A DNA stretch of 61,919 nucleotides, taken from positions 1 to 61,919 of IMG/VR virus record IMGVR_UViG_3300034025_000033; one strand, given 5' to 3'. The DNA is from a virus. Below the pieces are notes generated by a model. The model worked only from the letters and a program-made list of their open reading frames with translations, was not told the origin of the DNA and did not search any database. Shown piece after piece: positions 25,788 to 39,776 of this stretch; the stretch's first letter is position 1, and the number at the start of each line of letters is the position of its first letter. A program made the translations under genes and the position numbers.

Positions 25788-26130
25788 GCAGGGCAAGCTC
25801 CATCAGGAATGCGAGGGTGATTTCTTCGTCGTCGAGGTCGAGCGCGGCGCGCGCGTCTTGCTCGTAAGCACGACTATGATAAGGGCTTGCCTCCGCTTGC
25901 GGCGAAATTTTGGCAACCGTCGCCACTCTTGCCGCACTGGTGCGGCGCACGCGGCCGCCGCTGACGATCGCTTCGGCCTCGTCGTCGTGGTTGTCGTTCG
26001 GATTGGCGCGCACGTCCATCTCGGCCCAGCCGACGCACGGGCGCGACGGCCGGGTATCGAACTCGGCCCAGCCGATCTTCGGCGTCGGCGCCAGCGCATC
26101 GAATACGGCAAAGCCGATGCGGGCGGCCAT
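25780..26130 (-). CDS. Small acidic protein with (I/V)GWxE(F/M)D repeats (116 aa)
   Basis: IGWAEFDT and VGWAEMDV, plus the tail DDEEITLAFLMELALHV. Paralogue of 33406..33705. Its stop overlaps the next gene's ATG (CATGTCTAA). Confidence 0.7.
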   Translation of the reverse strand: MAARIGFAVFDALAPTPKIGWAEFDTRPSRPCVGWAEMDVRANPNDNHDDEAEAIVSGGRVRRTSAARVATVAKISPQAEASPYHSRAYEQDARAALDLDDEEITLAFLMELALHV

Positions 26131-26919
26131 TTATTGAGCCTCGAAGCGCAGGCGCAGATCGGTGTAGTCGGTGATGCTGTCGCACTGGATCGGCGTCAGT
26201 GCCTGCGCAAACTCGGTCGGCGTCGTCGGCAGCACCGGATGATCCCACCTGGCGATCATGGCCGCGCCCTGCATCAGCCTGACGACCATGCCCCCGGCGC
26301 CTTCGTCCCATACCTGATAACGCACCTTCTGGCCTGCGCTCGATTCCGGATCTTTTACTGGCCCCAGCCGGATCTCGCAATAAGCATTCGGGTTCGGTTC
26401 CGGCGCATAAATAAAATCGCTGCTTTTCGGATTCGGCTCGTCGATCATCGACGCCAGCGTGGCGCCGGCCTGCGACGGCAGCCAGTTGCCTGTTGCCACG
26501 TCGGCATAGGGCCGTGCAAAGCGCGCCGCCGTTTCCACCTCGTCGGGCGGATTGATGATCGCTTTCGTGATGACGGCCAGCGCCAGCGCGGCCGATACGA
26601 GATTGCCGCTGTCGCGCGCACGCACGCGGGTCTGGTACGTGGTCGCCGGCTGGCGCCCGCCAAACGTGGCATTGAGAACGTTGCCCACGTCGCCCCATGT
26701 TGCGCCACCGTCCAGGCTGACTTCGTAAGTGGCGACACCGACATCATCGGTCGCCGGTGGCCACGCCAGCGTAAAACTGTTGGTGCCGACAACGGGTGCG
26801 GTCAGTTCGCCGGCGAGGAAGGGCGGCGCATTGGCCGGGCCGCCGCCGTTGTCGACAAGGCCCTGGTCAACGAATACCGCGTCGTCGCCGCTGCGGTTGG
26901 GCAGGAACAGGCGGTCCAT
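26131..26919 (-). CDS. Tail-associated protein: FN3 domain plus conserved 130-aa C-terminal domain (262 aa)
   Basis: FTLAWPPATDDVGVATYEVSLDGG...YQTRVRARDSGN is FN3-like. The C-terminal 130 aa are paralogous to the C-terminus of the 513-aa protein. Confidence 0.75.
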   Translation of the reverse strand: MDRLFLPNRSGDDAVFVDQGLVDNGGGPANAPPFLAGELTAPVVGTNSFTLAWPPATDDVGVATYEVSLDGGATWGDVGNVLNATFGGRQPATTYQTRVRARDSGNLVSAALALAVITKAIINPPDEVETAARFARPYADVATGNWLPSQAGATLASMIDEPNPKSSDFIYAPEPNPNAYCEIRLGPVKDPESSAGQKVRYQVWDEGAGGMVVRLMQGAAMIARWDHPVLPTTPTEFAQALTPIQCDSITDYTDLRLRFEAQ

Positions 26920-29393
26920 TATTCCACCACCACCGGGCCGGAAAACGCTTTGTGATTGATCGCCGGGTTGCCGGTGTCATCACTCACATCGAGGCGTCCG
27001 ATGTCGCCGACCCAAAGGCTTGAATTCGGCAGCGGGATCAGGATTTCGCCGTTCGCATCCGTTGTCTCCGTTGCCCCCTTATCGGTCGGCGCTCCGATCA
27101 GATCCAGCGTCGGCTGGTCGAACCACGCATAGCGCAGGCCCGCCAGGTTCGGGATCGGCACCTTGACGCCGCCTACGAACTGGGTCAGCCGGAAGCGCAC
27201 AAACGGCGCGCGCGGCGTGAACGATTCCGATGGCTCCGACGGCTCGCTGGCGCCGACTTCATTGATGGCAACGACCGTCACCGTGGCGGCAACGTCGCGC
27301 GGCAGGTTGATGCGTACCGGGCTGTCCTTCCCCTCTGCCGTTTGTCCGCTTGATGCAGTCACGCGGAACGAGTTGACAGGCCAGCCGCCATCGTTGACGG
27401 GCGCGGTGAAGAACACGAGCGCATAACCGTTGCGCGCCTGCACCGTCACGTCGGTCGGGGCGTCTGGCGCGCTGCCCGGCGTGACCGGCTGCGACGGCAG
27501 GGATGCCGGCCCCGGACCGTTGGCGTTGATGGCAACGACGGTTGCCGTCACTACCGTGCCGTCTCCAGCCTCGACGACGATCGGGCTGCTGCTGCTGCTG
27601 GCCGTCTCGCCGTCCGATGTGGTGACGCGGTATTCGATGACAGGAGAACCGCCGTCGGAGAGGGGCGGCAGGAAGCTGACGAGGATGGCGCCGTTGAGGG
27701 CCGACGCGGAGACGTTGCGCGGCGCGCCGGGCACGCCAGGGGCGGGCGTAACCTGGTTGGAAGGTGCCGACTCGGGACCGAAGCCGACGACGTTTTCAGC
27801 GGCCACGGTAACGGTCAGCGACGCGCCGTTCGGGGCATTCAGCGGAATCGGGCTGGCCTGCCCGGTTGCCACCTGGCCGGTCGAGGCGGTGACGCGGTAG
27901 CCGGTAATTTCCGCGCCGCCGTTGCTGGCCGGCTCGGTGAACGACACCCTGACAATGCCGTTTCCGGCGGTAGCCGTGACGTTGGACGGGGCGCCGGGCG
28001 CTACGGCGTTCGGGGCGGTGCCAGGGCCGGAGCCGCCGCCGGCCACGCCCATGATGGAAAACGGCGTACCGTTCGCCGTGACATCGCCCGATTCGTTCGT
28101 TGCCGTGACGACGACATCGTATTTGCCCGGCGCCACCGCTTCAAACTGCGCCGGCACGGTGGCGGCATTGACGCTGTAACTTGGCGTCACGGTCAGCGAG
28201 CGGCTGACGGCGCCATCGCCTTTTGCCACCAGGTCCACCACCAGCGTTCTGGCGCGCTGGAAGGCGATCGACAGGCTGACGTTCTGGCCGTCGGGCGGGT
28301 CTTGTGTCGCCACGCTGACGCTCGGCCTGGGCGGCGCGGTCGTGACGGTGATGCTGTCGACCAGGGACGTGTTGTTCGAATAGCGCACTTCCAGCAGGCC
28401 GGTCGATGGCGTTGTGGCCGGCATCGTCCCGGAGAAGCTGCCGCCCGACGGGCTGGCCACCAGCGTTACCCAAGTTCCGCCCTTGAAGCGCGCCTGGATG
28501 CTCGTCGGCGTGCTGCCGGAATAAGTGCCGGAAACCAGGAACCCTTCGCTGTTGACGGTTGCATTCGGCACCGGGCCGGTGATCTTGATGCCCGGCGCCA
28601 CCACGGCCATGTTGTCGTAGCCGGCGTATGGGTCGCGCCGGTGCTGGATGACTTCGGCCTGGCTCAGTGCCCGGTTCCATACCGTATCGTCGATCAGGAT
28701 CAGGTCGCTGGTGGAGCTGCCGGCATAGCCGTGATAGGTGCCGGACGACGCGCCGGTCCATGGTCCGCCGCCGGTATTCAGGCTGTTCGACGTGCCGGCA
28801 ACAGCCAGCACGTCGTTGACGTAGACGCTGACGGTGGTTCCGTCGCGCACCATGTACAGGTCGACGATCGAGCCGAACGGGACGCGCAGATTTTCAGCCG
28901 TGCGCGCCGAGACGACGGGGAAGGACGTATGTTCGCCGAATATCCAGAAGAAGCACACATAGCCATCGGCTGATTCAACGGTCGACAGCGTGATCTTTAC
29001 GCCGCTGGCGTTGGAATAGCGGGCGATGGCGCGTACCGACGTGGTCGTGAAAGCCGACGGCGCCCGGTAGCGGTGATGGAGGGTGAACGGCCCGTTGTCG
29101 CCGATTCCCAGCCTTGACAGGTCCATGCCGCGGTACGCCTGCACGGCGCCGCTCTTGTTCTGGCTGATGTCGCGGCCGTAGATGCCGGGCGCTGCCAGCA
29201 CGGTCGGGAAGTTCGCGCCGGCGTCCTTGGTCAGCGCATGGGTGCCGGCGTGCGGCGCGCCGTCACCGCCGGCAAACCCGCTACTCGGGTCGCCCGCATA
29301 GTCGAACGCGGACGTGATCCCGGCATTGAGCGAATACTGGGTCGGCGTCTTGAGTTTAAGGGGATAGATGCGCAGGTTGCGGTCAATAGCCAT
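26919..29393 (-). CDS. Tail fibre/spike-like protein: LamG-like domain plus three FN3 domains (824 aa)
   Basis: ...VYVNDVLAVAG...LILIDDTVWNRALSQAEVIQH is Laminin_G_3-like. Three consecutive ~88-aa FN3 units follow. Confidence 0.8.
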   Translation of the reverse strand: MAIDRNLRIYPLKLKTPTQYSLNAGITSAFDYAGDPSSGFAGGDGAPHAGTHALTKDAGANFPTVLAAPGIYGRDISQNKSGAVQAYRGMDLSRLGIGDNGPFTLHHRYRAPSAFTTTSVRAIARYSNASGVKITLSTVESADGYVCFFWIFGEHTSFPVVSARTAENLRVPFGSIVDLYMVRDGTTVSVYVNDVLAVAGTSNSLNTGGGPWTGASSGTYHGYAGSSTSDLILIDDTVWNRALSQAEVIQHRRDPYAGYDNMAVVAPGIKITGPVPNATVNSEGFLVSGTYSGSTPTSIQARFKGGTWVTLVASPSGGSFSGTMPATTPSTGLLEVRYSNNTSLVDSITVTTAPPRPSVSVATQDPPDGQNVSLSIAFQRARTLVVDLVAKGDGAVSRSLTVTPSYSVNAATVPAQFEAVAPGKYDVVVTATNESGDVTANGTPFSIMGVAGGGSGPGTAPNAVAPGAPSNVTATAGNGIVRVSFTEPASNGGAEITGYRVTASTGQVATGQASPIPLNAPNGASLTVTVAAENVVGFGPESAPSNQVTPAPGVPGAPRNVSASALNGAILVSFLPPLSDGGSPVIEYRVTTSDGETASSSSSPIVVEAGDGTVVTATVVAINANGPGPASLPSQPVTPGSAPDAPTDVTVQARNGYALVFFTAPVNDGGWPVNSFRVTASSGQTAEGKDSPVRINLPRDVAATVTVVAINEVGASEPSEPSESFTPRAPFVRFRLTQFVGGVKVPIPNLAGLRYAWFDQPTLDLIGAPTDKGATETTDANGEILIPLPNSSLWVGDIGRLDVSDDTGNPAINHKAFSGPVVVE
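27213..28001 (-). repeat. Three tandem FN3-encoding units
   Basis: Units at 27744..28001, 27477..27743 and 27213..27476. Each reads AP..P.NV.a....g...VsF..P..dGG..i..YrVt.s.G......sP......g...tvtVvA.N..G.g..S.ps..vtP. Confidence 0.8.
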
Positions 29394-32200
29394 TAGAGAG
29401 TCTCCACGTCGTCTGGATTAGGGGATTGCAGGAACGCATAAGCCGTCGGGATGGACCACTCCATAAGTGCCAGCGAGCGCTGGGTGGTGCCGCTCGCTGC
29501 TGCGCTCTTGATGCGGTCGTCCCATTGCTTGTGGAAGTCTTCGACGATGTCGGCCGCCTCCTGCACTTCATCCCACGAATACAGGCACGGGATGTCGTGG
29601 AAGAATTCAAGCCGGAGCTTCGGCCAGCTGGCGCGCAGCTGCTCCGACGAGTCCGGGCCGCGGAATGATCCATCCGAACGGTGAATCCAGTCTTCCTGCC
29701 CGGCCCCAGGGTATTTGCGATCGCGCCAGTCGCCCCAGTTCAGGGGAATGTCGGGGTTGTTCAGGACGGTATGGTCGATCGGGATGAAGGGCGCGCCGTT
29801 ATACACGTCGCCGTTGCCGCCGATATAGCTGCCGCGCGTCTGCGTGAACCACTGGATCGATCCGGCGTCGAGCATGCGGATAAGCATCAGCAGGGCTTTC
29901 TGCGACGCCTCGCTCTGGTTCCACATCTTGTTGAACAGGCCGAACTGGCGCATCTTGAGCAGGGCGCCTGCCATGTAGAAGGTCAGGCCGAACGAGGTCG
30001 AACCCCAGCGGCTGCCATTCCACCTGTGCGGCACGCCGAACCGCTTCATGATGACGAAGTGCGGATCCTGGCTGTTTTCCACGTACATCGGAAGGTAGTA
30101 TTCCTGATAAACCTGGTTCAGCTCGATCGCCAGGCGTGCTTCGATGTCGGACTGGCGCACGCCCAGCACCGGATGGTCGGACGCCAGCTTCCACATGGTC
30201 GAATGCTGGAGAATCTTCCAGGCGTGCTCGCGGCTGCCGACATAACCGCCCGCCGACGTGGTCGGGCGGCTTTCGCCCAGTCCGATCATCAGGTGCGCGA
30301 TATAGCGATGCTTGGCCGAGAAGGCGTGCGCCGGGCTGTTGTAGTGCATGGCCACGTCGCCCGGGGTCTGGTAGTTGTGCAGGTTATCCGGAGCGTAACC
30401 GTTCCATGGCAAACGGTAGTTGGCGTCGCAGAACTGGCCGCCATGCGGGCGTTGCCCGTTCGACGCGAAGCTGCCCAGGCGCGAGGCGAACAGGGGAACG
30501 GCGTAGTTGGTGCCGCCGGACGTGTAGCTGGAATTCGGACCGTAGAAGGTCCGGCAGTAGCTCCAGTCGCCTGCGAGAAGTTCGTTCAACGGCAGCGTCG
30601 TCATGTTGCGCACGTCCGTGAAGTAGTGGCATCCCTGGTTGAAGTAGCCCAGCTTCCAGTGCTCAAACATTTCCGAGATCGGCGTGTTGTCGCGCAGATG
30701 CACCCAGTTCGGATCCGTCAGGGCGATCATCAGCGGACCGGCCCATACGCCACGGTCAATGCGCACGCCGCCCGGTCCGGTGGTCTGGTCGTGCATGCAG
30801 TAGCTGCCCGGCTCGTAGCCCCAGCCCATGACGCGCGCGGCGCCGTAGCTGACTTCCCCGAAGTCCGACGCGGGGATGCCGTGCACTGCCGCCCAGTCGG
30901 GCGTCTGCATGTAGTTGTTGACCGTGCTGCCGGGGTTGATCGGGTACAGGTACGGGTCCAGCGACAGGTCGGCGCGCACGGCGTCCTCGTTGGCGGCGTT
31001 GGCCCACTTGCCGCTGGCGAACCAGTGCTGCCAGCCGTGGTTTCCGCCCGAATTGCCGGCCATCGGCATCACGCCGGCATAGGCGGCTTTTTCCTTGCCG
31101 AGACTTGGGCGCACGGCGCGCATGTCCATACCGGGGAACCACTTCTTCGATTTCGCGCTCATCTTCGGCTTGTGCGACTGCCAGAACAGCATCTGTCCGC
31201 AATGCATGTGCGGGCGCAGCGGCTTGGTCTTGGTCGGCACTTCCGACAACTGCGACGAGTTGATCGGCAAATTGTCGCGGTTCATGTCCCAGGTGTGCAT
31301 CAGGGCATTGCTGCCGTTGTACAGCTTGGCCTTGAACGCTTCGGGGAAGGTGTTGGAGACGCCATACGTGACCGGAGCGTCGAACGTCTTGGAGCCGAGC
31401 CGGTAGCCGCTGTAACGCGGGTAGTTCGGCCAGTTCTGGCCCGGTCCGCTGGTCGGCTTCATCATCACCAGAACCTGGTGCAGCGTGCGCCCGCCTTCGG
31501 CATTGGCGGCGGCGTTCATGGAGAACATGATGGCGCCGAATTCGATGTCGATATAGGTGACGATGCCGGTCGAATTCGTCACGCGCACATCACCCATGCC
31601 GGCGGCGATTTCCGGATCGGTGAACGTCCAGTTGTCCAGGCGGTTGTTGAACGGGATGCGGCCCACTTCGACCACGTTCTGCGGGTTGCGCCAGTCCTCG
31701 ATGACCACGTAGGCCGGGGCATCGTCGCCCAGCGCCGGCGGCGAGTAGCCGGTGCCCGACGGCAGGAACGGCGGCGGCTTGATGCGCAGGTTCGGCGTCA
31801 CCGCGATGCTGTTGGTGGTGGTCGGGTTTTCCGGCACCAGGAAGTCCGCATTCGATCCGGCCAGGCCCAGTCTGCCCTCGATCCAGTTGCCGTTGCCTTC
31901 GATGCGCAGGACGGCCACGCCGGCGGCAAGGTCGGCCGCCAGGGCAGTCGTTAGGTTCGACGTGGTGCCGTAGGAAGTGACGATGCCGCCCTCGATTGCC
32001 ATGTCGCCGCTGATGGCGGCGTCGCGGAATTTCGTGCCGCTGGCGTAGGCGTTTTCTTCCGGCGTGCCGGCAGGAGCAATCTTGCAGGTCACGCGCCGAC
32101 TGGCGCCCAGCCCGTTTTTGAATGCTGCCGACCACGCATTGTTGCTGATCGTTGCCGCGCTCAGGCTTGCGGCAAATGTAGGATTGACGCGAAGTGTCAT
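29393..32200 (-). CDS. Large W/Y/H-rich virion protein, candidate polysaccharide depolymerase / tailspike (935 aa)
   Basis: An N-terminal beta-rich region is followed by about 650 aa with enzyme-like composition (many W, H, Y, N, G). It is flanked by receptor-binding-type genes. No motif was recognised with certainty. Confidence 0.7.
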   Translation of the reverse strand: MTLRVNPTFAASLSAATISNNAWSAAFKNGLGASRRVTCKIAPAGTPEENAYASGTKFRDAAISGDMAIEGGIVTSYGTTSNLTTALAADLAAGVAVLRIEGNGNWIEGRLGLAGSNADFLVPENPTTTNSIAVTPNLRIKPPPFLPSGTGYSPPALGDDAPAYVVIEDWRNPQNVVEVGRIPFNNRLDNWTFTDPEIAAGMGDVRVTNSTGIVTYIDIEFGAIMFSMNAAANAEGGRTLHQVLVMMKPTSGPGQNWPNYPRYSGYRLGSKTFDAPVTYGVSNTFPEAFKAKLYNGSNALMHTWDMNRDNLPINSSQLSEVPTKTKPLRPHMHCGQMLFWQSHKPKMSAKSKKWFPGMDMRAVRPSLGKEKAAYAGVMPMAGNSGGNHGWQHWFASGKWANAANEDAVRADLSLDPYLYPINPGSTVNNYMQTPDWAAVHGIPASDFGEVSYGAARVMGWGYEPGSYCMHDQTTGPGGVRIDRGVWAGPLMIALTDPNWVHLRDNTPISEMFEHWKLGYFNQGCHYFTDVRNMTTLPLNELLAGDWSYCRTFYGPNSSYTSGGTNYAVPLFASRLGSFASNGQRPHGGQFCDANYRLPWNGYAPDNLHNYQTPGDVAMHYNSPAHAFSAKHRYIAHLMIGLGESRPTTSAGGYVGSREHAWKILQHSTMWKLASDHPVLGVRQSDIEARLAIELNQVYQEYYLPMYVENSQDPHFVIMKRFGVPHRWNGSRWGSTSFGLTFYMAGALLKMRQFGLFNKMWNQSEASQKALLMLIRMLDAGSIQWFTQTRGSYIGGNGDVYNGAPFIPIDHTVLNNPDIPLNWGDWRDRKYPGAGQEDWIHRSDGSFRGPDSSEQLRASWPKLRLEFFHDIPCLYSWDEVQEAADIVEDFHKQWDDRIKSAAASGTTQRSLALMEWSIPTAYAFLQSPNPDDVETL

Positions 32201-32901
32201 TGTTTTGGCTCGCTGGTAGTTGCTGGGTGCAAGGTAAAGGACTCGATGCGCTTCTTGCTGTCGCGCTTGGCGATGGCGCGGTAGCGCTTGCCGTCCTTCG
32301 TGATCGTCAGTTCGCTAATGCGGTCGGACAGGTCGCGCGTGACGCCGGCCTGCATGGTGACGGCGCCGGTGATGGAGACGGCGGCGAGCCGGTCCTTCTT
32401 GTCGCGGGCGACGGTGGCCACGATCGGGCCGGTGGGCGCGGGCTTCGCGGCGGGCGCCGGTTCGGTCTTGGCGATCGGCACGGCCGCGCCAGGCGGGCGT
32501 AGGGGCATGTCGATGAAGCGCGGCGGCGCGGCTGGTGCTGGCTCAGGTTGAGGCGCTGGCGCTGGCGCTGGTGGCGGTGGCGGTGGCGGCGCGGCGGGCG
32601 CGGGCGCGGGCGCGGGCTGCTGCGCCTGCTTTGCGATCGCTTCGACCAGGCTGCGCACGGCTTCGTTCGTGGCGCGCACGGTGTCGGCGGTGGCGCGCAG
32701 CAGGGCGCGCGCTTCGTGGTCGACGACCGGGGCGGCTGGTGCTGGTGGCGCAGGCTTAGGCGCAGGCGCTGGTGGAGGCGGCGGCGGCGGCGCTGGCGGT
32801 GGTGGCGGTGGTGGCGGTGGCGCGGGTGGCGCGGGCGGCGGCGCGCGGCCCGTTACCTTGTGCAGCTCGGCAGTACTCTTGACGCGGATCGTCGCCATCA
32901 T
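32197..32901 (-). CDS. Extreme proline-rich protein (234 aa)
   Basis: ATGATG is at 32901..32896, in ATGA overlap with the upstream stop. Two Pro/Ala runs are present, including PPPPPPPPP and PPPPPPP. The C-terminal ...RDSKKRIESF is paralogous to the 95-aa ORF tail. Confidence 0.7.
   Translation of the reverse strand: MMATIRVKSTAELHKVTGRAPPPAPPAPPPPPPPPPAPPPPPPPAPAPKPAPPAPAAPVVDHEARALLRATADTVRATNEAVRSLVEAIAKQAQQPAPAPAPAAPPPPPPPAPAPAPQPEPAPAAPPRFIDMPLRPPGAAVPIAKTEPAPAAKPAPTGPIVATVARDKKDRLAAVSITGAVTMQAGVTRDLSDRISELTITKDGKRYRAIAKRDSKKRIESFTLHPATTSEPKQ
32521..32616 (-). repeat. Hexanucleotide tandem repeats encoding Pro/Ala run 2
   Basis: Plus strand (ggcgct)x3, (ggtggc)x3 and (gcgggc)x3 in direct succession. 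Confidence 0.85.
32728..32841 (-). repeat. Tri/hexanucleotide repeats encoding Pro/Ala run 1
   Basis: Plus strand ggcggcggcggcggc and (ggtggc)n / gcgggtggc blocks. They encode a 38-aa stretch of P, A and one K. Confidence 0.85.
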
Positions 32902-33416
32902 CCGCCCTTCATGCACTTCAGGAGCGCGGTCAGGTTGGCAATGTCGTCGTTCACGGCGGCCAGCACTTGGTCGGCGGGAATCTGTTCCTGCGTCGTGATG
33001 CCGGTTTCCTCGTTGAACACGTCGGTGCCGATGCGGACCCTGGCATAGAACGCCAGCGGGATGTCTTCGCCGGTGTCGGGCGCTTCCTCGACGGCTGGCG
33101 CTGGTTCGGCGGGTTCGGCGGCCGGCTCTGGTTCTGGTTGCGGCGCCGGTTGCGGCTCAGGCTCAGGTGCAGGCGCGGCAGCAGGTTCTGGCTGCGGGCG
33201 CCTGGCGCCGCCCTGCGCCTCGTACTGCTCGCGCACCAGGCGGATGATTTTCTGCTCTTCCATGCGCGCCAGCGCCAGCTTGTCGCGCACGACCTGACGG
33301 AGCGCTTCTTCCGGCTCCATGCCGGCCGCTTGGTATTTCCCGGCCAGCGCGCGCAACTCGGCAATGGGCAACTTCTTGTTCAGGCCCAGCGAGCGGACGC
33401 AAGTATTAAAAGACAT
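32898..33416 (-). CDS. Chimeric virion protein: N-domain of the PLxRFG protein plus C-domain of the 985-aa protein (172 aa)
   Basis: The N-terminal 71 aa (MSFNTCVRSLGL...VREQYEAQGGA) align with 1448-aa residues 1-73. The C-terminal 59 aa (DIPLAFY...DDIANLTALLKCMKGG) align with the 985-aa C-terminus. A Pro/Glu/Ala linker lies between them. Confidence 0.75.
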   Translation of the reverse strand: MSFNTCVRSLGLNKKLPIAELRALAGKYQAAGMEPEEALRQVVRDKLALARMEEQKIIRLVREQYEAQGGARRPQPEPAAAPAPEPEPQPAPQPEPEPAAEPAEPAPAVEEAPDTGEDIPLAFYARVRIGTDVFNEETGITTQEQIPADQVLAAVNDDIANLTALLKCMKGG

Positions 33417-33705
33417 GGGCGATGATCTCCATCAGGATGGCGTGGATGATTTCCTCTTCGTCGTCCGGCTCGACGTTGAGCGGAATATCGTATTGCCGAC
33501 TGGAATCGTAATGATATCGCGCAACCCCGGCGCCGGGGTGGTAAATCGGCACCGGCTCGGCTGTTGGTGACTTCGCGTCGAGTTCGGACCAGCCGACATG
33601 GACGCGAAACGGCCGGGCCTGCACGTCGAGCTGTGACCAGCCGACGTTGACGCGCATGGGCGACGCTTGAACATCCAGGCCGCCCCAGCCGACGAAGACG
33701 GCCAT
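33406..33705 (-). CDS. Small acidic protein with VGWxxLD repeats (99 aa)
   Basis: VGWGGLDV, VGWSQLDV and VGWSELDA, plus the tail DDEEEIIHAILMEIIAHVF. TAATG junction upstream. It overlaps the next ATG (CATGTCTTTTAA). Confidence 0.7.
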   Translation of the reverse strand: MAVFVGWGGLDVQASPMRVNVGWSQLDVQARPFRVHVGWSELDAKSPTAEPVPIYHPGAGVARYHYDSSRQYDIPLNVEPDDEEEIIHAILMEIIAHVF

Positions 33706-35246
33706 TACAGCGCCTCGAACTGGTGGCGCAGGTCGGAATAATTCGTGATGCTCGCCGCCTGCGCCAGCGTCAGGCGCTGCGCGTAGATGGTCGGCGTGGC
33801 CGGCAGCGTCGCATGCACCCATTCGGCGATCTGGCGGTTGCCCTGCATCAGACGCACCACGATACCGTCGCCGGTGTCGCTCCATACCTGGTAACGCATG
33901 ACGTGGCCTTCGTCCGTGCCCGGATCGAATACTGGGTTCAGCAGCACTTCGCACAGGCCCGGCGTTGACGCGCGGATGTAGGTTGTGGCATCGGCGCTCG
34001 GCTCGGACAGCATGGCAGCGAGAGAATTGCCAGCCGAAGGCAGCCAGACGCCGGGCGTGCCGATCTGCAGCACATCTTCTGCGGGCCGTCCATAGCGCTT
34101 GTCGACGTTGCTCGTGACCTCGGCGCTGTCTCCCTCGTTGGACTGCGTGCCGTTGCTGCCGCCCAGGTTCTGCGCTTGCGTGATGGCGCCGCCCGTGCCG
34201 CTGTTGCCTTGTTCGCCATCGGTGCCCTGGACCTGCTGCTGCGCGACGATATCGACGGCGCCGCCAGTGCCGGTGTTGTCCTGGTTGCCGTCGCTTCCGG
34301 CCAGATTCTGTTCCTGGCCAATGGCGCCAGCGCTGCCGGTGTTGGCAATCGCGCCGTTTGTGCCGCCGAGATTTTGCGCCTGTGTGATCGTCCCGCTGGT
34401 GCCGGTCGCTCCCTGCGATCCGTCGGTGCCGACCAGGTTCAGGGGCGGCGTCGTAGTAACCGGAGCAAGTCGGGAGTAAGGAAAGACGGGAGGCGCCGCC
34501 ATGATTTGCTGCGGGTTGCGGTAGAAGTTGTCGATCTCCCGCTCGGCCAGCGCCCGGCCGCCGATGAATGTCGCGTTGAACAGCTGCGCATTCATCGACT
34601 GGAAGCCGTACGTGCCGCCGCCCATCAAGTCCAGCGGTATGGTGTCCCCAGTGGCCAGCGGCCCGGACAGGGTCGACGTGAAGGACCGGGACACGACGCC
34701 CTGCGGCGTTCCATCGTTGAGAAACACACGACAGTGCGAGCGAATCTTGATCTGCGTGCCGCCATCGTAGGTAATCCCCAGAAAGACGCGCGCGTAGGTT
34801 CCGCTCTGACTCCACAGGTCATAGTTGAAGTCCTGGCTATACGTGGCCAGTTGGATACGCCGGAATGCTGTAGCGGTCAGCAGAGTGAACTGAGTGCGGG
34901 GCCGGGCTGAACTGTCGCCGAAACTGAATACGCACTTGCCGCCACTGTATGAAACGTCGCCTTGCCAGAATTCGACAATGATCGTGCGCGCAACGGCACC
35001 GGCCATGCCCAGTTCGGACGGCAGCAGGCCGGTGCTGATTTTGCCGACGCCGGTTCCCATGGCAGCCTTGCCCATCGGGTCGGGCTGCAGGACCGGGCCA
35101 GTCGATACCCCCAGGCCGGGCCGGCCGCGCACTGCTGATTTAAAATCGCGCACCAGCGGAAAATGCGCGGTGACACTGCGGCCAATTGGCGTGCCCGCCG
35201 AAACCTTCGTGCCGGCTGGCAGTCGGCGTGAATAGTCGCGGGCCAT
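33705..35246 (-). CDS. Tail-associated protein: LamG-like domain, Q/N/G quasi-repeats and the conserved 130-aa C-terminal domain (513 aa)
   Basis: ...FNATFIGGRALAEREIDNFYRNP is LamG-like. Repeats QAQNLGGTNG / QEQNLAGSDG / QAQNLGGSNG lie at about 34130..34440. The C-terminal domain is shared with 26131..26523. Confidence 0.8.
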   Translation of the reverse strand: MARDYSRRLPAGTKVSAGTPIGRSVTAHFPLVRDFKSAVRGRPGLGVSTGPVLQPDPMGKAAMGTGVGKISTGLLPSELGMAGAVARTIIVEFWQGDVSYSGGKCVFSFGDSSARPRTQFTLLTATAFRRIQLATYSQDFNYDLWSQSGTYARVFLGITYDGGTQIKIRSHCRVFLNDGTPQGVVSRSFTSTLSGPLATGDTIPLDLMGGGTYGFQSMNAQLFNATFIGGRALAEREIDNFYRNPQQIMAAPPVFPYSRLAPVTTTPPLNLVGTDGSQGATGTSGTITQAQNLGGTNGAIANTGSAGAIGQEQNLAGSDGNQDNTGTGGAVDIVAQQQVQGTDGEQGNSGTGGAITQAQNLGGSNGTQSNEGDSAEVTSNVDKRYGRPAEDVLQIGTPGVWLPSAGNSLAAMLSEPSADATTYIRASTPGLCEVLLNPVFDPGTDEGHVMRYQVWSDTGDGIVVRLMQGNRQIAEWVHATLPATPTIYAQRLTLAQAASITNYSDLRHQFEAL

Positions 35247-35249
35247 GGC

Positions 35250-35621
35250 TTACGGCACCTGGCGCGCCAGGTAGACCTCGACCGTTACGTTCTGCGACGT
35301 GTTGCCGAATGCCTTGGCGGTATAGCTGGGATAGGCACCGGTAACAGTGATCGAACCGCTCTGGCTGTCGCTCGCTATCACGCTGCCCGTCACGCGGTCC
35401 AGTTCATAGAGGCGCCCGGCGGCGCTGACGCCGTAGAATATCAGCGTGACACCCGTACCAGGGGGCGTGGCGCCGTTGGTAATACGGTAAGAGAAGCTGA
35501 CGGTATAGTCAGCGAACGGGCCGACGGTTGCGCCAACGCCGGCGACATTGGGCGCCGCCTCGGTCCCACCGAACGGAATGACGGTGCCAGCAGCGAGAAT
35601 GGTTGCTTCTTGCAGGTTCAT
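35250..35621 (-). CDS. Virion-module hypothetical protein (123 aa)
   Basis: ATGA-type coupling (35618..35621). Beta-rich G/T/V/A composition. Confidence 0.7.
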   Translation of the reverse strand: MNLQEATILAAGTVIPFGGTEAAPNVAGVGATVGPFADYTVSFSYRITNGATPPGTGVTLIFYGVSAAGRLYELDRVTGSVIASDSQSGSITVTGAYPSYTAKAFGNTSQNVTVEVYLARQVP

Positions 35622-36127
35622 TGTGCGCTCGCTTCAATTTGATCGATGGCCGCTTCCACCTGGAGGCGATCGACGACGACAGGCACGCGGGCGCTCCCCT
35701 TGAGGATCGACACCGCGGCGCCGTACTTGGTCGGGTTGGTCGCGGCGATCAGGTCCATCATCTGCTGCGTCCTTTCCGACCCTATGTCGAGTCCGTCGCT
35801 GTCCTCCAGCCAGTTATGCGCGCTGGCCAGGGTGTCGAGGTAGGCGAAGTGATGTTCCGCCGGCACCTTCATCTGCGTGAGCACGACGACGAATTCGGGT
35901 GGCAGTTCGCTCGCCGTGCTCAGTTGCCTGAGCAGGATCAGGAAGTTTGCCGCGTCGAGCACCGGCAGCAGCCCGCGCACGCCGCGCGAAGTAATATGCT
36001 TCGGAGCCAGTTCGGTGACGCCTTCGGCGTTGAGCGCGTCTGCCAGCAGGTCCAGTTCGCGCGCAGCGATCAGGTCGGCCAGGTCGGGGCGCGCAAGCAG
36101 GCGCGCGCTGATGGTGGGCGTGGCCAT
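35618..36127 (-). CDS. Virion-module hypothetical protein (169 aa)
   Basis: Start at ATG 36127 (MATPTISARLL), 4 nt after the upstream stop. The longer track ORF upstream is Pro/Arg/Ser shadow sequence. Confidence 0.65.
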   Translation of the reverse strand: MATPTISARLLARPDLADLIAARELDLLADALNAEGVTELAPKHITSRGVRGLLPVLDAANFLILLRQLSTASELPPEFVVVLTQMKVPAEHHFAYLDTLASAHNWLEDSDGLDIGSERTQQMMDLIAATNPTKYGAAVSILKGSARVPVVVDRLQVEAAIDQIEASAQ

Positions 36128-36131
36128 GGCG

Positions 36132-36521
36132 TCAGGTCGGGTAATTGCTGGTGTACGACAGGGCCGGGAAATTGATCGTATTGCCGGCCGTGACGGGCAT
36201 GTCGGTCGATTCGTCGGTGACGTACAGCACGCGGTTGTCGGACGAGACGAAGGCGAAAGCCAGGTCGGCGCCGGTGATGGTCGCCGTTGCGGTCGAGCCG
36301 GCTTTGCCGTTGAACGTGCAGCGGCGATTGTCGCCGACGCTGGTGATCGCGCCGAAGTCGGCGGCCGTGATCGCCGCTTCGGCCAGCTTGCTCGCTTCCA
36401 CACTGGCATAGCTGGCGTTCTTGACGTAGTTCGGCACCAGGAGGATGCGCGAAGCGGTCGCTTTCAGGTAGGCGCAGCCGTTGTCGAGCAGGTCGGGGTG
36501 GGCGTGGCGTGCAATGGTCAT
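36132..36521 (-). CDS. Virion-module hypothetical protein (129 aa)
   Basis: Clean ORF with beta-rich composition. Confidence 0.7.
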   Translation of the reverse strand: MTIARHAHPDLLDNGCAYLKATASRILLVPNYVKNASYASVEASKLAEAAITAADFGAITSVGDNRRCTFNGKAGSTATATITGADLAFAFVSSDNRVLYVTDESTDMPVTAGNTINFPALSYTSNYPT

Positions 36522-36529
36522 GGTGGTCC

Positions 36530-36817
36530 TTATTCGATAACGTGAACGATGATGCGCGACAGCCTGCCTTTGCTGTCGCGCTCGGGAATGGCTTCCAGAC
36601 GCGACGGCCTGGCGGGCGGTTTCAGGGTGGCCAGCATCTGCGGCAGCGCAGCCATGTGCTCGGCCATGTGCGTGATGGCCTGCTGCATGGCGACTATCTG
36701 CGCGCTGTTGTCGGGCACGGCCGGCACGGGAAGCGGCGCCGGTGCTGGCGCGGATGGTGCCGGGGTGGGCTTGACGCCCCGGGCGCGATTGATGTCGTCG
36801 CGGGTCTTTACCAGCAT
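36530..36817 (-). CDS. Proline-rich small protein (95 aa), short paralogue of 32197..32901
   Basis: It starts 1 nt after the ...ALLKCMGG stop. KPTPAPSAPAPAPLPVPAVP. The tail RDSKGRLSRIIVH compares with RDSKKRIESFTLH. Confidence 0.65.
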   Translation of the reverse strand: MLVKTRDDINRARGVKPTPAPSAPAPAPLPVPAVPDNSAQIVAMQQAITHMAEHMAALPQMLATLKPPARPSRLEAIPERDSKGRLSRIIVHVIE

Positions 36818-36818
36818 G

Positions 36819-39776
36819 TCAGCCTCCCATGCACTTTAAAAGCGCTTCCAGGTGCGCGATGTCGTCGCGCGTGGACTGGAGCGCATCGCCGGCGGCGACA
36901 TCGATCGTTTCGGTGCCGGCCTCGCCCTCGATGTGGACTTCGTGCGGCACCTTCACCTGGAAGTAGAAGGCCAGGGGGATGTCGGCGCCGTCGTCGCGGG
37001 CGGGTTCGGCTTCGACAGGGGCGGGTGCTGGCGCGGCTTCCTCGCTTCGCGCTGGCGTGGCTTCTGGCGTGGCGGCGGCTTCTGGTTGCGCATTCGGTTG
37101 CTCCTTTGCGGCGCCTTTATCGCGCCTCTTTACCTTCGCATCCCCCGATGCCGCAAGATCGCGGATTGCTTGTTCGGGAGAATTGGCCATTACTGATCCG
37201 ACGCGCTCGCCGTCTTTGTTGCTGACTTGATAGGTATCAGCGCCGATGTCTTTCGCGGTCCATCCGTCGGTTGCGCCTGGCTCTACCTGCGCGGCGCGCG
37301 CTGCGGCGTTGTCATTCGCGGTTTTCAGCTGCCCGGCCAGCTTCGCTTCCTTGTCGGCGGTGGCCTGGCGCCAGTCCGGTTTTTTCGCTTCCGGGTCTGC
37401 TTTCGCGCGCCGGTTGTCGAGCGCTTTCTGCAGCTTCGGCGTGCGCTTGTGGGTCGGGCCGTAGTGCTCGATCGCCGCTTCCAGTTCGGCGTCGGACATG
37501 GCCGGGATCAGTTTGTCGCGCCAGGCCGGTTCTGCCGTCAGTGCAGGGTCGGCGTCGGCGCCGCCAGCTGCGCGAACAGGATCAGGTTCACCAGTTGCCA
37601 CTGCTGCGTCGTCAGCGGTTCCGCGTGCTCCCGGCTGCGCTTGAGCAGCGCCAGTTCCGCCGGTTTCGCCGCTCCCAGCAGGATCAGCAAGTTGATCGCC
37701 TGTTCCTCGGGCAGCGCCATCTGGCGCCGCCAATACTGCGTTGTCGCCTGCATCGGGCGCTCCTGTGGGTGCATCGTTCGGTTGCAGGACAAAGCCGCCT
37801 TGCACGGGCAGCACAGTATGCGTATCGGTGAGCGCATCGGCCTTCTGCTTGCGCCGCGCCGCCATTTCAGACTTGAACGGCTCGCCTGCCGGGTTCATGA
37901 CCGTGAACGGGTCCATGATGTCGGTCAGCGTGGGGATCTCGGGAAGGTCGCTGGAATTCGGGATCCGGTCGGTGAGCATCGGGATTTCCGGGCGGTTCAG
38001 CGGGCTGCTGTTGGGCAGTTCCTCGTCCAGTGTCGGCACGTCCGGCAGCGGGCTGGACGATGGCAGCGTGTCGGTAAGGGTCGGGATGTCTTGCGGCTGG
38101 CCGATCTTGTCGTTCAAGACCGGGATGCCGTCGGCAGGTGCCAGCGTATCGGTCAAGGTCGGGATCGGTCCGGCCTGTTGCGCAGCCTGACGCGGGCCAT
38201 GCGGCGCCGGCTTGCCCAGTGCCTGCTCGCGCTCGGCCAACAGCGAGGCGGCGGCCTGCTGATCGCGTTGCTCCTTGCCGGTGCGGACCTGCTCGCCATA
38301 GGTTTCTGGTGCTGCTTCGCCGTTGGCATCGACGCGGATTGCGCCGCCCGGTGCTTCGCGGTCCGGTCCCGGCAGCATGCCCTGGTCACCCTTTTGCAGG
38401 GCGTCGAACTGCGCCTGCGTGTGCAGGGTCAGCCACTTCGACGGGATCACCGTGAACAGCTTGCCCTTCGGGTGCGGCACGATCATCAGGCCCATGCCCT
38501 TCGCGCCCGGCGAGCGCACCAGCGACTGGGCGTAATCGAGCGGCACGCCGTCGTGGCGCTGCCCCCATGCCTGCAGGTTCTGCTGCTCCGCTTCCTCGCT
38601 GGAGACGAATTTCTGTTCGGGTTCCGGTTCCGGCTCGATGCGCTTGCCCGTTTCCGGGTCGCGCCCCATGATCTCGCGCTCCTTGCGGGTGCGCTCTTCT
38701 GGGTCGGTGAACTGCGACAGGTAGGCAGCCAGATCCTGCTTGTGACCGACCGAGCCATCAGGGAACGAGATCAAAGGCTGCGGATCGTAGCCCAGTTGCA
38801 GAACCTGCTGCTCGATGGCGGCATTGGCCGCACGGGTAAGTGGACCGGATTCCTGCACTTTCTGCGAGCGTAAGACCGATGCCGCGCCGCCGGCGCCGCC
38901 ACCGACCAGCCCCACGCCGACAGAATCGACGTAATCGCGGATGGCGTCGGCCGTGCTCAGTTCCTGGCCCGCGCCATAGCGCTCGATGCCAGTCTGGATG
39001 CCTTCGGTGACTCCTTCGCGTGCCATGGCGCCGGGCACCTCGCGCACGCCGGCGCGCAGCATCGATTCGCCGGGCTTACGCGCACCCTTGAGCACGCGGC
39101 CCATCATCAGCGCGTCCATCGCGGTATCGACGCCGGCGGCGGCCACTGCCGAGCCGACCACGCGCGCCTTGTCCATGCCGTCGAGTTCGCGGCCTTCCTT
39201 GGCCGCTTCGTTGAGTGCTTCGGGGTAGATCGATCCGGCTTCCTGCGCCAGGTTGTTGCCCAGCAGGGCAGCGCCTGCGCCCCACTTCGCGCCCTGTGCC
39301 GCGACTTTGGACGCGACCTCGCGGGCAGCGAGCGAATTGGCGCCGCGCGCGACGACGCCGGCAATGCCGCGCTTGGCCAGCTGCGAACCGATGAAGCCGC
39401 CGACGCCGCCGGTGGCGAGCGCCTGCACCGCCTGGCCGGCGACATAGCCGCCCGTGTTGGCGAGCCAGTCGCTGCCGGACGCATCGCCTTCCAGCACGTT
39501 CGACAGGGAGTCGGAATCCTTCGTGATCGCCTGGATCTTCTCGCTGTTCTTCTGATACATGCTCAGGCCGACTTCCTTCAGCCCTTCCGAGCCGGCCAGG
39601 TCGCCGACCAGCGCGGCGCTGCCGCCGAGCGTCTGCGGCACCTGCAGCATGGCCTTTTCAAAACCGCGCGAGAAATTGCCCTGTTCCTTCTCGGGCTTCG
39701 GCGCCTGCTCCGCGCTGGCGTCCGACAGCGGGCGGTAGACAATGCCCTGCTTGGCGAGATCGGCAAATTTGCTCAT
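36819..39776 (-). CDS. Large internal-virion/ejection-type protein (985 aa)
   Basis: Gly/Ala-rich N-terminal region, six (I/V)P(T/V/M)L(T/N/D)(D/E) repeats, and a C-terminal DIPLAFY...ALLKCMGG domain. It sits in the block of large proteins after the tail genes. Confidence 0.8.
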   Translation of the reverse strand: MSKFADLAKQGIVYRPLSDASAEQAPKPEKEQGNFSRGFEKAMLQVPQTLGGSAALVGDLAGSEGLKEVGLSMYQKNSEKIQAITKDSDSLSNVLEGDASGSDWLANTGGYVAGQAVQALATGGVGGFIGSQLAKRGIAGVVARGANSLAAREVASKVAAQGAKWGAGAALLGNNLAQEAGSIYPEALNEAAKEGRELDGMDKARVVGSAVAAAGVDTAMDALMMGRVLKGARKPGESMLRAGVREVPGAMAREGVTEGIQTGIERYGAGQELSTADAIRDYVDSVGVGLVGGGAGGAASVLRSQKVQESGPLTRAANAAIEQQVLQLGYDPQPLISFPDGSVGHKQDLAAYLSQFTDPEERTRKEREIMGRDPETGKRIEPEPEPEQKFVSSEEAEQQNLQAWGQRHDGVPLDYAQSLVRSPGAKGMGLMIVPHPKGKLFTVIPSKWLTLHTQAQFDALQKGDQGMLPGPDREAPGGAIRVDANGEAAPETYGEQVRTGKEQRDQQAAASLLAEREQALGKPAPHGPRQAAQQAGPIPTLTDTLAPADGIPVLNDKIGQPQDIPTLTDTLPSSSPLPDVPTLDEELPNSSPLNRPEIPMLTDRIPNSSDLPEIPTLTDIMDPFTVMNPAGEPFKSEMAARRKQKADALTDTHTVLPVQGGFVLQPNDAPTGAPDAGDNAVLAAPDGAARGTGDQLADPAGSGETGGTGAAQAQPGARGTADDAAVATGEPDPVRAAGGADADPALTAEPAWRDKLIPAMSDAELEAAIEHYGPTHKRTPKLQKALDNRRAKADPEAKKPDWRQATADKEAKLAGQLKTANDNAAARAAQVEPGATDGWTAKDIGADTYQVSNKDGERVGSVMANSPEQAIRDLAASGDAKVKRRDKGAAKEQPNAQPEAAATPEATPARSEEAAPAPAPVEAEPARDDGADIPLAFYFQVKVPHEVHIEGEAGTETIDVAAGDALQSTRDDIAHLEALLKCMGG
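37915..38172 (-). repeat. Six IPTLTD-type peptide repeats
   Basis: GPIPTLTDTL, DGIPVLNDKI, QDIPTLTDTL, PDVPTLDEEL, PEIPMLTDRI and PEIPTLTDIM. Visible on the plus strand as a recurring tcggt(c/g/a)a(g/a)(c/g)(g/a)t(g/c)gggat. Confidence 0.85.

Follow-up and report, generated by a model that had tools for sequence, protein, structure and literature searches.

How can a phage come to encode a small protein that begins like one of its giant proteins and ends like another, and why would such a protein be kept? The question is raised by a gene of 172 amino acids (aa), here called the joint gene, on the minus strand of IMG/VR virus record IMGVR_UViG_3300034025_000033, whose 61,919 bp were analysed as a whole (the window). 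We regard it as likely that this gene is the novel joint of a segmental recombination event which stacked two different tail-fibre cassettes in one genome, and that it has been kept under selection.

The record is complete, with direct terminal repeats and a G+C content of 58-68% (in 2-kb windows), and its late genes lie on the minus strand: terminase, portal, major capsid protein, matches to PHROG ‘internal virion protein’ families and an acetyltransferase. The same strand encodes a 1448-aa protein with LPD39 (E 1.2e-37), a PLxRFG domain (NF032893, 822 bits) and matches to DarB-like PHROG families. Judged by its gene content, the phage appears to have the make-up of a Bcep22-like podophage; in cultured phages of that group a DarB-like polyvalent protein (JC1 gp69) is virion-associated by mass spectrometry (PMC9144972). 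The joint gene, its parts and their two counterparts at the ends of large late genes are as follows.

32898-33416, minus strand: the 172-aa joint gene, an open reading frame (ORF) of N-domain, linker and C-domain
33201-33416, minus strand: N-domain of the joint gene (codons 1-72), paralogous to the N-terminus of the PLxRFG protein
33066-33200, minus strand: Pro/Ala/Glu linker of the joint gene (codons 73-117, 45 residues)
32901-33065, minus strand: C-domain of the joint gene (codons 118-172), with the stop codon at 32898-32900
25572-25787, minus strand: N-domain (first 72 aa) of the 1448-aa PLxRFG/LPD39 polyvalent protein (gene 21441-25787)
36819-36995, minus strand: C-domain (last 58 aa and stop) of the 985-aa internal-virion-type protein X (gene 36819-39776)

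A preliminary description of this locus, made from the letters alone, had proposed that the N-domain of the PLxRFG protein is joined here to the C-domain of the 985-aa protein (X985). The ORFs that it named are all present where it placed them, on the minus strand, and pairwise alignment of the segments concerned is significant for both halves: residues 3-73 of the joint protein align with 5-76 of the PLxRFG protein (43% identity, E 2e-15), and residues 114-171 match residues 928-985 of X985 without a gap (47% identity, E 1e-12). A six-frame search of the phage's own genome with the joint protein found just these three places. We corrected the start of the PLxRFG gene to 25787 (not 25796 or 25790), giving the length of 1448 aa. 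The joint protein has no match to NF032893, LPD39 or the DarB-like PHROGs; it has only its first 72 residues in common with the PLxRFG protein and, as far as its sequence tells, it carries none of the effector domains and is not itself a PLxRFG/DarB-like polyvalent protein. In Pfam, NCBIfam and PHROGs no model matches either terminal domain, and the chimera obtains low-complexity linker matches only; those to SslE, PspA, SucB and PARP are confined to residues 72-115. A TonB- or PARP-like identity was rejected, such matches being due to linker composition (TonB reaches 18.6 bits against a cut-off of 315).

The genes on either side of the joint gene show how far the duplication extends. Read 5′ to 3′ on the minus strand, and named by their lengths in aa, they run X985 (C-domain)-p95-129-170-123-513 (fibre C-terminal domain)-v98-172 and, continuing past the joint gene, p234-935-824-262 (fibre C-terminal domain)-v116-PV1448 (N-domain), where PV is the polyvalent PLxRFG protein. 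From this order the joint gene appears as the exact meeting point of two units, each made of C-domain, p, variable genes, fibre C-terminal domain, v and N-domain. We call these units cassettes 1 and 2, and their parts are listed here in the direction of transcription.

36530-36817, minus strand: p95, the short Pro-rich partner and first gene of cassette 1, ending ERDSKGRLSRIIVHVIE
35250-36521, minus strand: variable genes of cassette 1, of 129 aa (36132-36521), 170 aa (35618-36130) and 123 aa (35250-35621)
33708-34196, minus strand: C-terminal domain (~160 aa) of the 513-aa collagen-repeat fibre (gene 33705-35246), in the right frame of cassette 1
33406-33702, minus strand: v98, the closing gene of cassette 1, whose 98 aa include three (V/I)GWxxLD repeats and, at the C-terminus, an acidic helix
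32197-32901, minus strand: p234, the long Pro-rich partner and first gene of cassette 2, with three RD..(D/K)R(L/I) motifs
26919-32200, minus strand: variable genes of cassette 2, of 935 aa (29393-32200) and 824 aa (26919-29393)
26134-26610, minus strand: C-terminal domain (~160 aa) of the 262-aa protein (gene 26131-26919), in the right frame of cassette 2
25780-26130, minus strand: v116, the paralogue of v98 and last gene of cassette 2, overlapping the start of the PLxRFG gene by 8 nucleotides (nt)

On the left of each cassette, p95 starts 1 nt past the X985 stop (TGA C ATG) and the p234 start overlaps the joint-gene stop (ATGA), which agrees with the earlier remark that a Pro-rich gene follows within 1-4 nt of each C-domain stop. 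That the two Pro-rich partners are paralogous, as had also been suggested, holds: compared pairwise they are only weakly similar (E 0.003 over 20 residues at RDSK(G/K)R), but the relation is backed by a profile match (hhalign) over the first 23 residues (probability 89%, E 2.3e-6), by the same architecture and by the same position. Other phages had been named as the place to look for C-domains beside Pro-rich ORFs, and there the pairing is conserved, p lying directly after the C-domain gene in 13 of 13 examined instances on 10 contigs. We assign to the p family genes that start no more than 4 nt from the C-domain stop and whose products carry the motif M.V+T..-l...G+.P at the N-terminus, then a Pro-rich stretch and a helix, and at the C-terminus the beta motif RD..G/D/K-R/K-h, features seen in both p95 and p234. 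In p234-type proteins the RD motif occurs three times, and the p234 orthologues of the related loci L009 and L013 follow a bona fide X protein.

On the right, v98 runs 11 nt into the joint gene and is paralogous to v116 (E 9e-11), and 10 of 11 loci have a v gene before the N-domain. Neither p nor v has a match in Pfam, NCBIfam or PHROGs. The fibre C-terminal domains of the 513-aa and 262-aa proteins are 43% identical (E 1.6e-34), and the same domain occurs in L009, L010, L016 and L017/L018. Between these frames lie genes of fibre type: the 513-aa protein has collagen-like repeats and tail-fibre PHROG matches, the 824-aa protein has three FN3 domains and a weak Laminin_G_3, and the cassettes of relatives carry Laminin_G_3, SASA and BNR domains. 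The inner genes of cassette 1 have no detectable similarity to those of cassette 2. Thus the duplication exceeds the extent first described, since the v gene and the fibre C-terminal domain are duplicated too.

Relatives with a single cassette bear on the origin of the joint gene. L010 has a single type-1 cassette (X1565-p100-125-141-133-619-v128-PV4133) and L009 a single type-2 cassette (X944-p214-939-1206-538-263-v103-PV1846), and neither has the chimera; the same is true of L014 (type 1) and L013 (type 2). The variable genes of cassette 1 have orthologues in the single-cassette L010 and L014. For cassette 2, the 939-aa protein of L009 is 66% identical to the 935-aa protein of the window, the L009 orthologue of the 824-aa protein is 46% identical, and the C-terminal ~880 residues of the L009 polyvalent protein are 84% identical to those of the window. 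Four complete IMG/VR genomes and one contig of a Ramlibacter metagenome-assembled genome (MAG), together G001-G005, carry exactly one C-domain and one N-domain each, again without a chimera, the C-domain (at the end of a large ORF) lying 3.6-5.7 kb upstream of the N-domain (at the start of a large ORF). These single-cassette relatives probably show the state before stacking. Both cassettes together with the joint gene, in identical synteny, are found in the window and in the Logan contigs L004 and L005/L006. Three full-length joint-protein orthologues are 55-57% identical to the window protein, and P0004 is a fourth, counted without genomic context.

The two halves of the joint protein have their closer relatives in other genomes. 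Its C-domain is 61% identical to that of the L009 X protein against 47% to that of its own X985, and its N-domain is 56% identical to that of the L010 polyvalent protein against 43% to that of its own; the N-domain of the window polyvalent protein, in turn, shares 78% identity with its L009 counterpart. A poorly resolved tree of 58 columns sets the X C-domains of the window, L004 and L005 apart as one clade (82/82) and places the chimera C-domains with those of other phages. Thus there are relatives that have the flanks but no joint, and both halves of the joint are closer to other genomes than to their own paralogue. The preliminary description had read the locus as domain shuffling between ejection-type proteins; the chimera is real, but it probably marks where a segmental event placed one complete tail-fibre cassette behind another, and free shuffling is contradicted by duplicated flanks that include v and the fibre C-terminal domain and by single-cassette relatives that lack the chimera.

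In this group of phages a cassette is normally framed on its left by the last ~58 aa (C-domain) of a large internal or ejected protein X and a translationally coupled Pro-rich p gene, and on its right by the fibre C-terminal domain, a coupled v gene of ~100 aa and the first ~72 aa (N-domain) of a PLxRFG polyvalent protein, with Pro/Ala/Glu-rich linkers tethering both terminal domains to their proteins. We propose that, in an unequal crossover, the linker trailing an N-domain recombined with one leading into a C-domain, joining the ‘...fibre-v-N-domain’ end of a type-1 cassette to the ‘C-domain-p-...’ start of a type-2 cassette. The parents would most likely have been two different phages, and the product would be a phage with both cassettes and with an ORF made of N-domain, linker and C-domain only. 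Such a crossover within the Pro-rich linkers is likely because both halves of the joint protein resemble single-cassette phages more than they resemble their paralogues in the same genome.

The second part of this reading is that the product has been kept. Across four joint-protein orthologues 82 of the 172 positions are invariant, concentrated in the two domains, and the joint C-domain still has the residues conserved throughout its wider family (P, F, D, C and the ALLKCM motif). The ORF is intact in five assemblies at 55-70% protein identity, and all changes of linker length are in frame. The ratio of non-synonymous to synonymous substitution rates (dN/dS) is 0.17-0.29 for the chimera N-domain and 0.22-0.42 for the chimera C-domain, against 0.16-0.31 for orthologous X C-domains and 0.14-0.38 for p95, p234, v98 and the 129-aa gene, all of them rough values with dS near saturation (0.5-2.4). 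The joint gene is under purifying selection in both of its halves.

Several points weigh against this account besides the roughness of the dN/dS values. The window C-domain sits on a long branch (0.63), so that constraint on it is possibly relaxed; conservation of the terminal codons is partly dual coding, because ribosome-binding sites overlap the gene ends; and trees built on 58-75 residues resolve poorly, none of their branches having strong support. The topology itself is that of a tandem duplication (a..b|a..b, with a new joint b|a), and all five frame elements are duplicated, as they would be if the stretch from C-domain to N-domain had been duplicated in situ and the copies had then diverged and had their inner fibre genes replaced, with no second parent involved. 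We nevertheless think this course of events rather unlikely: the inner genes of the two copies show no detectable similarity, each cassette type is found alone in other phages, and the halves of the chimera are 13-14 percentage points closer to a single-cassette phage than to their own paralogue. The ancestor may also have had two cassettes, the single-cassette forms being derived from it by deletion. Neither in-situ duplication nor a double-cassette ancestor would change what the joint gene is. Far less probable would be a decaying recombination remnant, the possibility that the preliminary description had named as fatal to its own claim, or an assembly artefact. The long branch of the window C-domain and the rarity of the chimera (a single cluster at 50% identity) could be taken that way, but the ORF is intact in five independent assemblies at 55-70% protein identity with in-frame linker changes, it is under purifying selection and its fold is confidently predicted. 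Intact in four divergent lineages, with dN/dS of 0.17-0.42, the gene is contradicted as a remnant, and pseudogene and artefact were both rejected.

How widely the two end-pieces occur was asked with a profile search of 1.84 billion representative proteins. The N-domain family (~72 aa: three helices starting at residue 1, MSFxxC...MEE..I...VR...E..GG, followed by a Pro/Ala-rich linker) forms ~34 clusters, always starts at residues 1-6 and lies mostly in proteins of 1.1-4.1 thousand aa, P0010, P0017, P0022 and P0025 being short ones. The C-domain family (~58 aa: helix, beta-hairpin and helix at the extreme C-terminus, IPxAF...V.V...AL..V.EDI..L.ALLKCM.G, preceded by a Pro/Ala/Glu-rich linker) forms ~114 clusters and always ends 0-3 residues from the end of the protein. 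The 172-aa protein has the defining features of both families, and its own cluster is the only one in which they occur together. By sequence comparison, then, both appear to be uncharacterised terminal domain families, matching no Pfam, NCBIfam or PHROG model.

We also observed that the bodies of C-domain proteins differ widely, with a ParB-like DGHH motif in L005 (3-743) and L007 (3634-6177), InPase (PF18823) in L010 (4001-8698) and lysozyme- or transglycosylase-like N-termini in P0013, P0108 and P0134. X would thus be a polyvalent-type protein and its C-domain a portable end-piece.

The clade that bears the cassettes consists of uncultured Bcep22-like phages, probably with hosts among the Burkholderiales. 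Among GenBank phages there was no match to 12 kb of the region by megablast, nor by tblastn to the 172-aa protein, the central N-domain or the central C-domain, so that no cultured relative with these domains was found there. An IMG/VR search with the chimera alignment found no relative, a metagenome scan with a narrower C-domain alignment found two loci only, and the Ramlibacter MAG was the sole match in 400 Burkholderiales genomes.

What might the joint protein do? AlphaFold2, run on it with a 21-row alignment, gave a mean predicted local distance difference test score (pLDDT) of 89.5 and a predicted template modelling score (pTM) of 0.74. The N-domain is predicted as helices 3-10, 18-30 and 35-67 (pLDDT 95-98) and the C-domain as a helix (121-126), a hairpin (128-135/140-147) and a second helix (148-169). 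A pTM of 0.74 in spite of the 45-residue linker means that the two domains are fixed relative to each other in the model, which suggests that they pack together; it counts against this that the packing comes from a single AlphaFold2 run in which only four sequences carry both domains. For comparison, a control chain of the L010 C-domain and p100, whose genes share a frame there and were joined by reading through the stop codon, gave no confident docking (pTM 0.38, with p lacking an alignment of its own). Its C-domain has the same fold (pLDDT 90-96), so that the same C-domain topology appears in two independent models. Of the structure and complex predictions that the preliminary description had proposed, a confident fold was obtained for the joint protein, but physical pairing of C-domain and p is unsupported in what is a weak test. 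Foldseek comparison of the chimera model with PDB and BFVD returned nothing at E <= 0.001; the best BFVD match (E 0.033) is a phage protein with a transglycosylase domain, probably an X-type relative.

The joint protein would be made by translational coupling within the late operon, and we put forward, tentatively, that it may be a small two-headed docking adaptor. In this proposal the N- and C-domains would be docking modules that pack on each other, and in the stacked genome the joint protein would offer X an N-domain, and the polyvalent protein a C-domain, to pair with. A more specific form, which we hold with greater doubt, is that the domains are cognate modules which in single-cassette phages tie the C-terminus of X to the N-terminus of the polyvalent protein, so that X and the polyvalent protein, both of them ejected, would be loaded or released together as a single chain. 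In that case the 172-aa protein would be a natural docking pair in one chain, and a bridge once the cassettes were stacked. For direct binding of the two modules, the pTM of 0.74 for the single-chain chimera against 0.38 for the control, where p had no alignment of its own, would be indirect evidence only. In the bridge the C-domain of X would bind the N-domain of the joint protein, the linker would join that N-domain to the joint C-domain, and the latter would bind the N-domain of the polyvalent protein. Such a role would explain selection on both halves of the joint protein.

Alternatively, each domain may act through the small gene that adjoins it, the N-domain binding v (which would also recognise the fibre C-terminal domain) and the C-domain binding p, so that during tail assembly the joint protein would connect the last part of fibre set 1 with the first part of fibre set 2. 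This, too, is no better than a tentative proposal. It draws on the constancy of the neighbours, with p after the C-domain in 13 of 13 cases and v before the N-domain in 10 of 11 and always coupled, and on L015, where the fibre C-terminal domain is missing and v has lost the GW repeats but keeps its acidic tail beside the N-domain. Yet the read-through chain of the L010 C-domain and p shows no confident docking (pTM 0.38, p again without its own alignment), L012 has an N-domain without v, and adjacency of C-domain with p and of v with N-domain may reflect linkage alone. Docking of N- on C-domain and binding of small neighbours have about equal odds in our estimation. Less likely, and indeed improbable, is that the joint ORF is held open only as a relay of translational coupling from v98 to p234, the protein itself having no role. 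Both ends of the ORF do overlap the neighbouring genes, the ribosome-binding sites lie inside terminal codons and no internal promoter is predicted; but a relay needs no more than an open frame, and here 82 of 172 positions are invariant and cluster in the two domains, dN/dS is the same as for the bona fide genes alongside, and the residues of the wider C-domain family (P, F, D, C, ALLKCM) are retained.

The translation signals just mentioned are themselves conserved. GGAG lies within the L-M-E codons of v (33420-33432), 10-11 nt before the N-domain ATG, across 10 loci, and GGGAGG or AAGGG lies within the C-M-(K)-G-G codons of the C-domain, before the p start (36822-36833 in the window), across 13 loci. 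Promoter and terminator prediction across the region gave none above chance that would interrupt the operon. The v stop overlaps codons 3-4 of the N-domain gene, reading GTC TTT TAA in the window (33403-33416), L004 and L005 and CTT TAA or CTT TAG in L010, L015 and L018. This resembles the +1 frameshift site of prfB, where a stop comes after a P-site codon that can re-pair one base further on. By such a +1 slip v and the N-domain protein would be made as one chain. L016 lacks the pattern, which may just follow from the MSF start.

Some neighbouring observations concern the right frame in other loci. L012 has the one N-domain polyvalent gene without v in front of it. A 100-nt spacer (2600-2700) there still holds GGAG at its customary spacing, and the genes before it are BNR/endosialidase-like and not a fibre with the conserved C-terminal domain. 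The v protein of L015 (2757-3011) has 84 aa, no GW repeats and the acidic tail beside the N-domain, and the gene before it lacks the fibre C-terminal domain; this form suggests that v consists of two parts with two different partners. In IMG/VR contig 3300009177_000010 (L017, 3001-3297) the polyvalent gene breaks frame after ~65 codons, and in the near-identical Ramlibacter MAG contig (L018, 3001-3231) it reads through into a 1458-aa frame, the break being either a sequencing error or a broken copy. Within the window, the 935-aa protein (29393-32200) has no sequence match in Pfam, PHROG or PDB and is the fastest-evolving of the compared genes (50% identity and dN/dS 0.55 against L004), a candidate receptor-binding or depolymerase protein with a new fold. 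Residues ~533-626 of X985 (about 37898-38180) contain 6-7 copies of an IP(T/M/V)L(T/N)D motif at a spacing of 10-20 residues, and this repeat is partly retained in the X protein of L013.

Juhala, Hendrix and colleagues reportedly described ‘novel joints’ in the mosaic lambdoid phages HK97 and HK022, produced by illegitimate recombination at gene or domain boundaries. The joint gene resembles these in its sharp switch of ancestry at domain boundaries, in a product that selection has kept and in sides with closer relatives elsewhere; it differs in that a new free-standing gene was made from the terminal modules of two large proteins, and in that a whole cassette was gained (stacking) rather than swapped. 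Phages with two or more sets of receptor-binding proteins include K1-5, phi92, CBA120 and G7C. They likewise have tandem fibre or spike sets, presumably acquired horizontally, by exchange of cassettes that contain conserved anchoring parts. What is conserved there is the N-terminal anchor domain of the fibres themselves, whereas here the conserved frame is made of neighbouring genes (the X C-terminus, p, the fibre C-terminal domain, v and the polyvalent N-terminus). The polyvalent proteins of phages and conjugative elements have been described by Iyer et al. 2017 (PMC5512222). The protein that donated the N-domain belongs to that group (LPD39, PLxRFG, DarB-like PHROGs), and the X-type proteins of relatives carry ParB-like, InPase and transglycosylase-like domains; the 172-aa protein differs in being without any effector domain.

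A likeness of another kind is to the docking domains of modular polyketide and non-ribosomal peptide synthases, which are short modules at protein ends with flexible linkers. Here also there are folded modules at extreme C- and N-termini on flexible tethers, their mutual packing being predicted only; there is no relation of sequence or fold, and the setting is that of virion and ejected proteins, so the analogy is one of working and not of descent. In P1, the giant antirestriction protein enters the virion only with the help of small proteins encoded together with it. Hdf, DarA and DdrA are mentioned as accessory proteins for the loading of DarB into P1 capsids, and no homologues of the Dar accessories are reported for Bcep22-like phages (PMC9144972). 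The P1 accessories are a possible model for v, p and the joint protein, to which no homology was detected.

Mosaic joints, phages with multiple fibre sets and polyvalent proteins are therefore already known. New in this locus are a cassette frame that lies in the ends of two neighbouring giant genes, two unmatched terminal domain families and a scar of stacking that is a free-standing conserved gene. The locus and its intermediate forms show how a phage can gain a second set of receptor-binding genes, probably by crossover in the low-complexity linkers of neighbouring giant genes, with the scar becoming a conserved new gene. The two domain families and the coupled p and v families that frame the fibre cassette are handles for recognising and swapping host-range cassettes. 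If the domains dock, they would offer a testable model for the recruitment of giant antirestriction-type proteins into virions; and if the joint protein is a bridge, it would represent a new principle for ordering virion-packaged effector proteins, and one of the few documented instances in which the scar of a recombination directly became a required adaptor.

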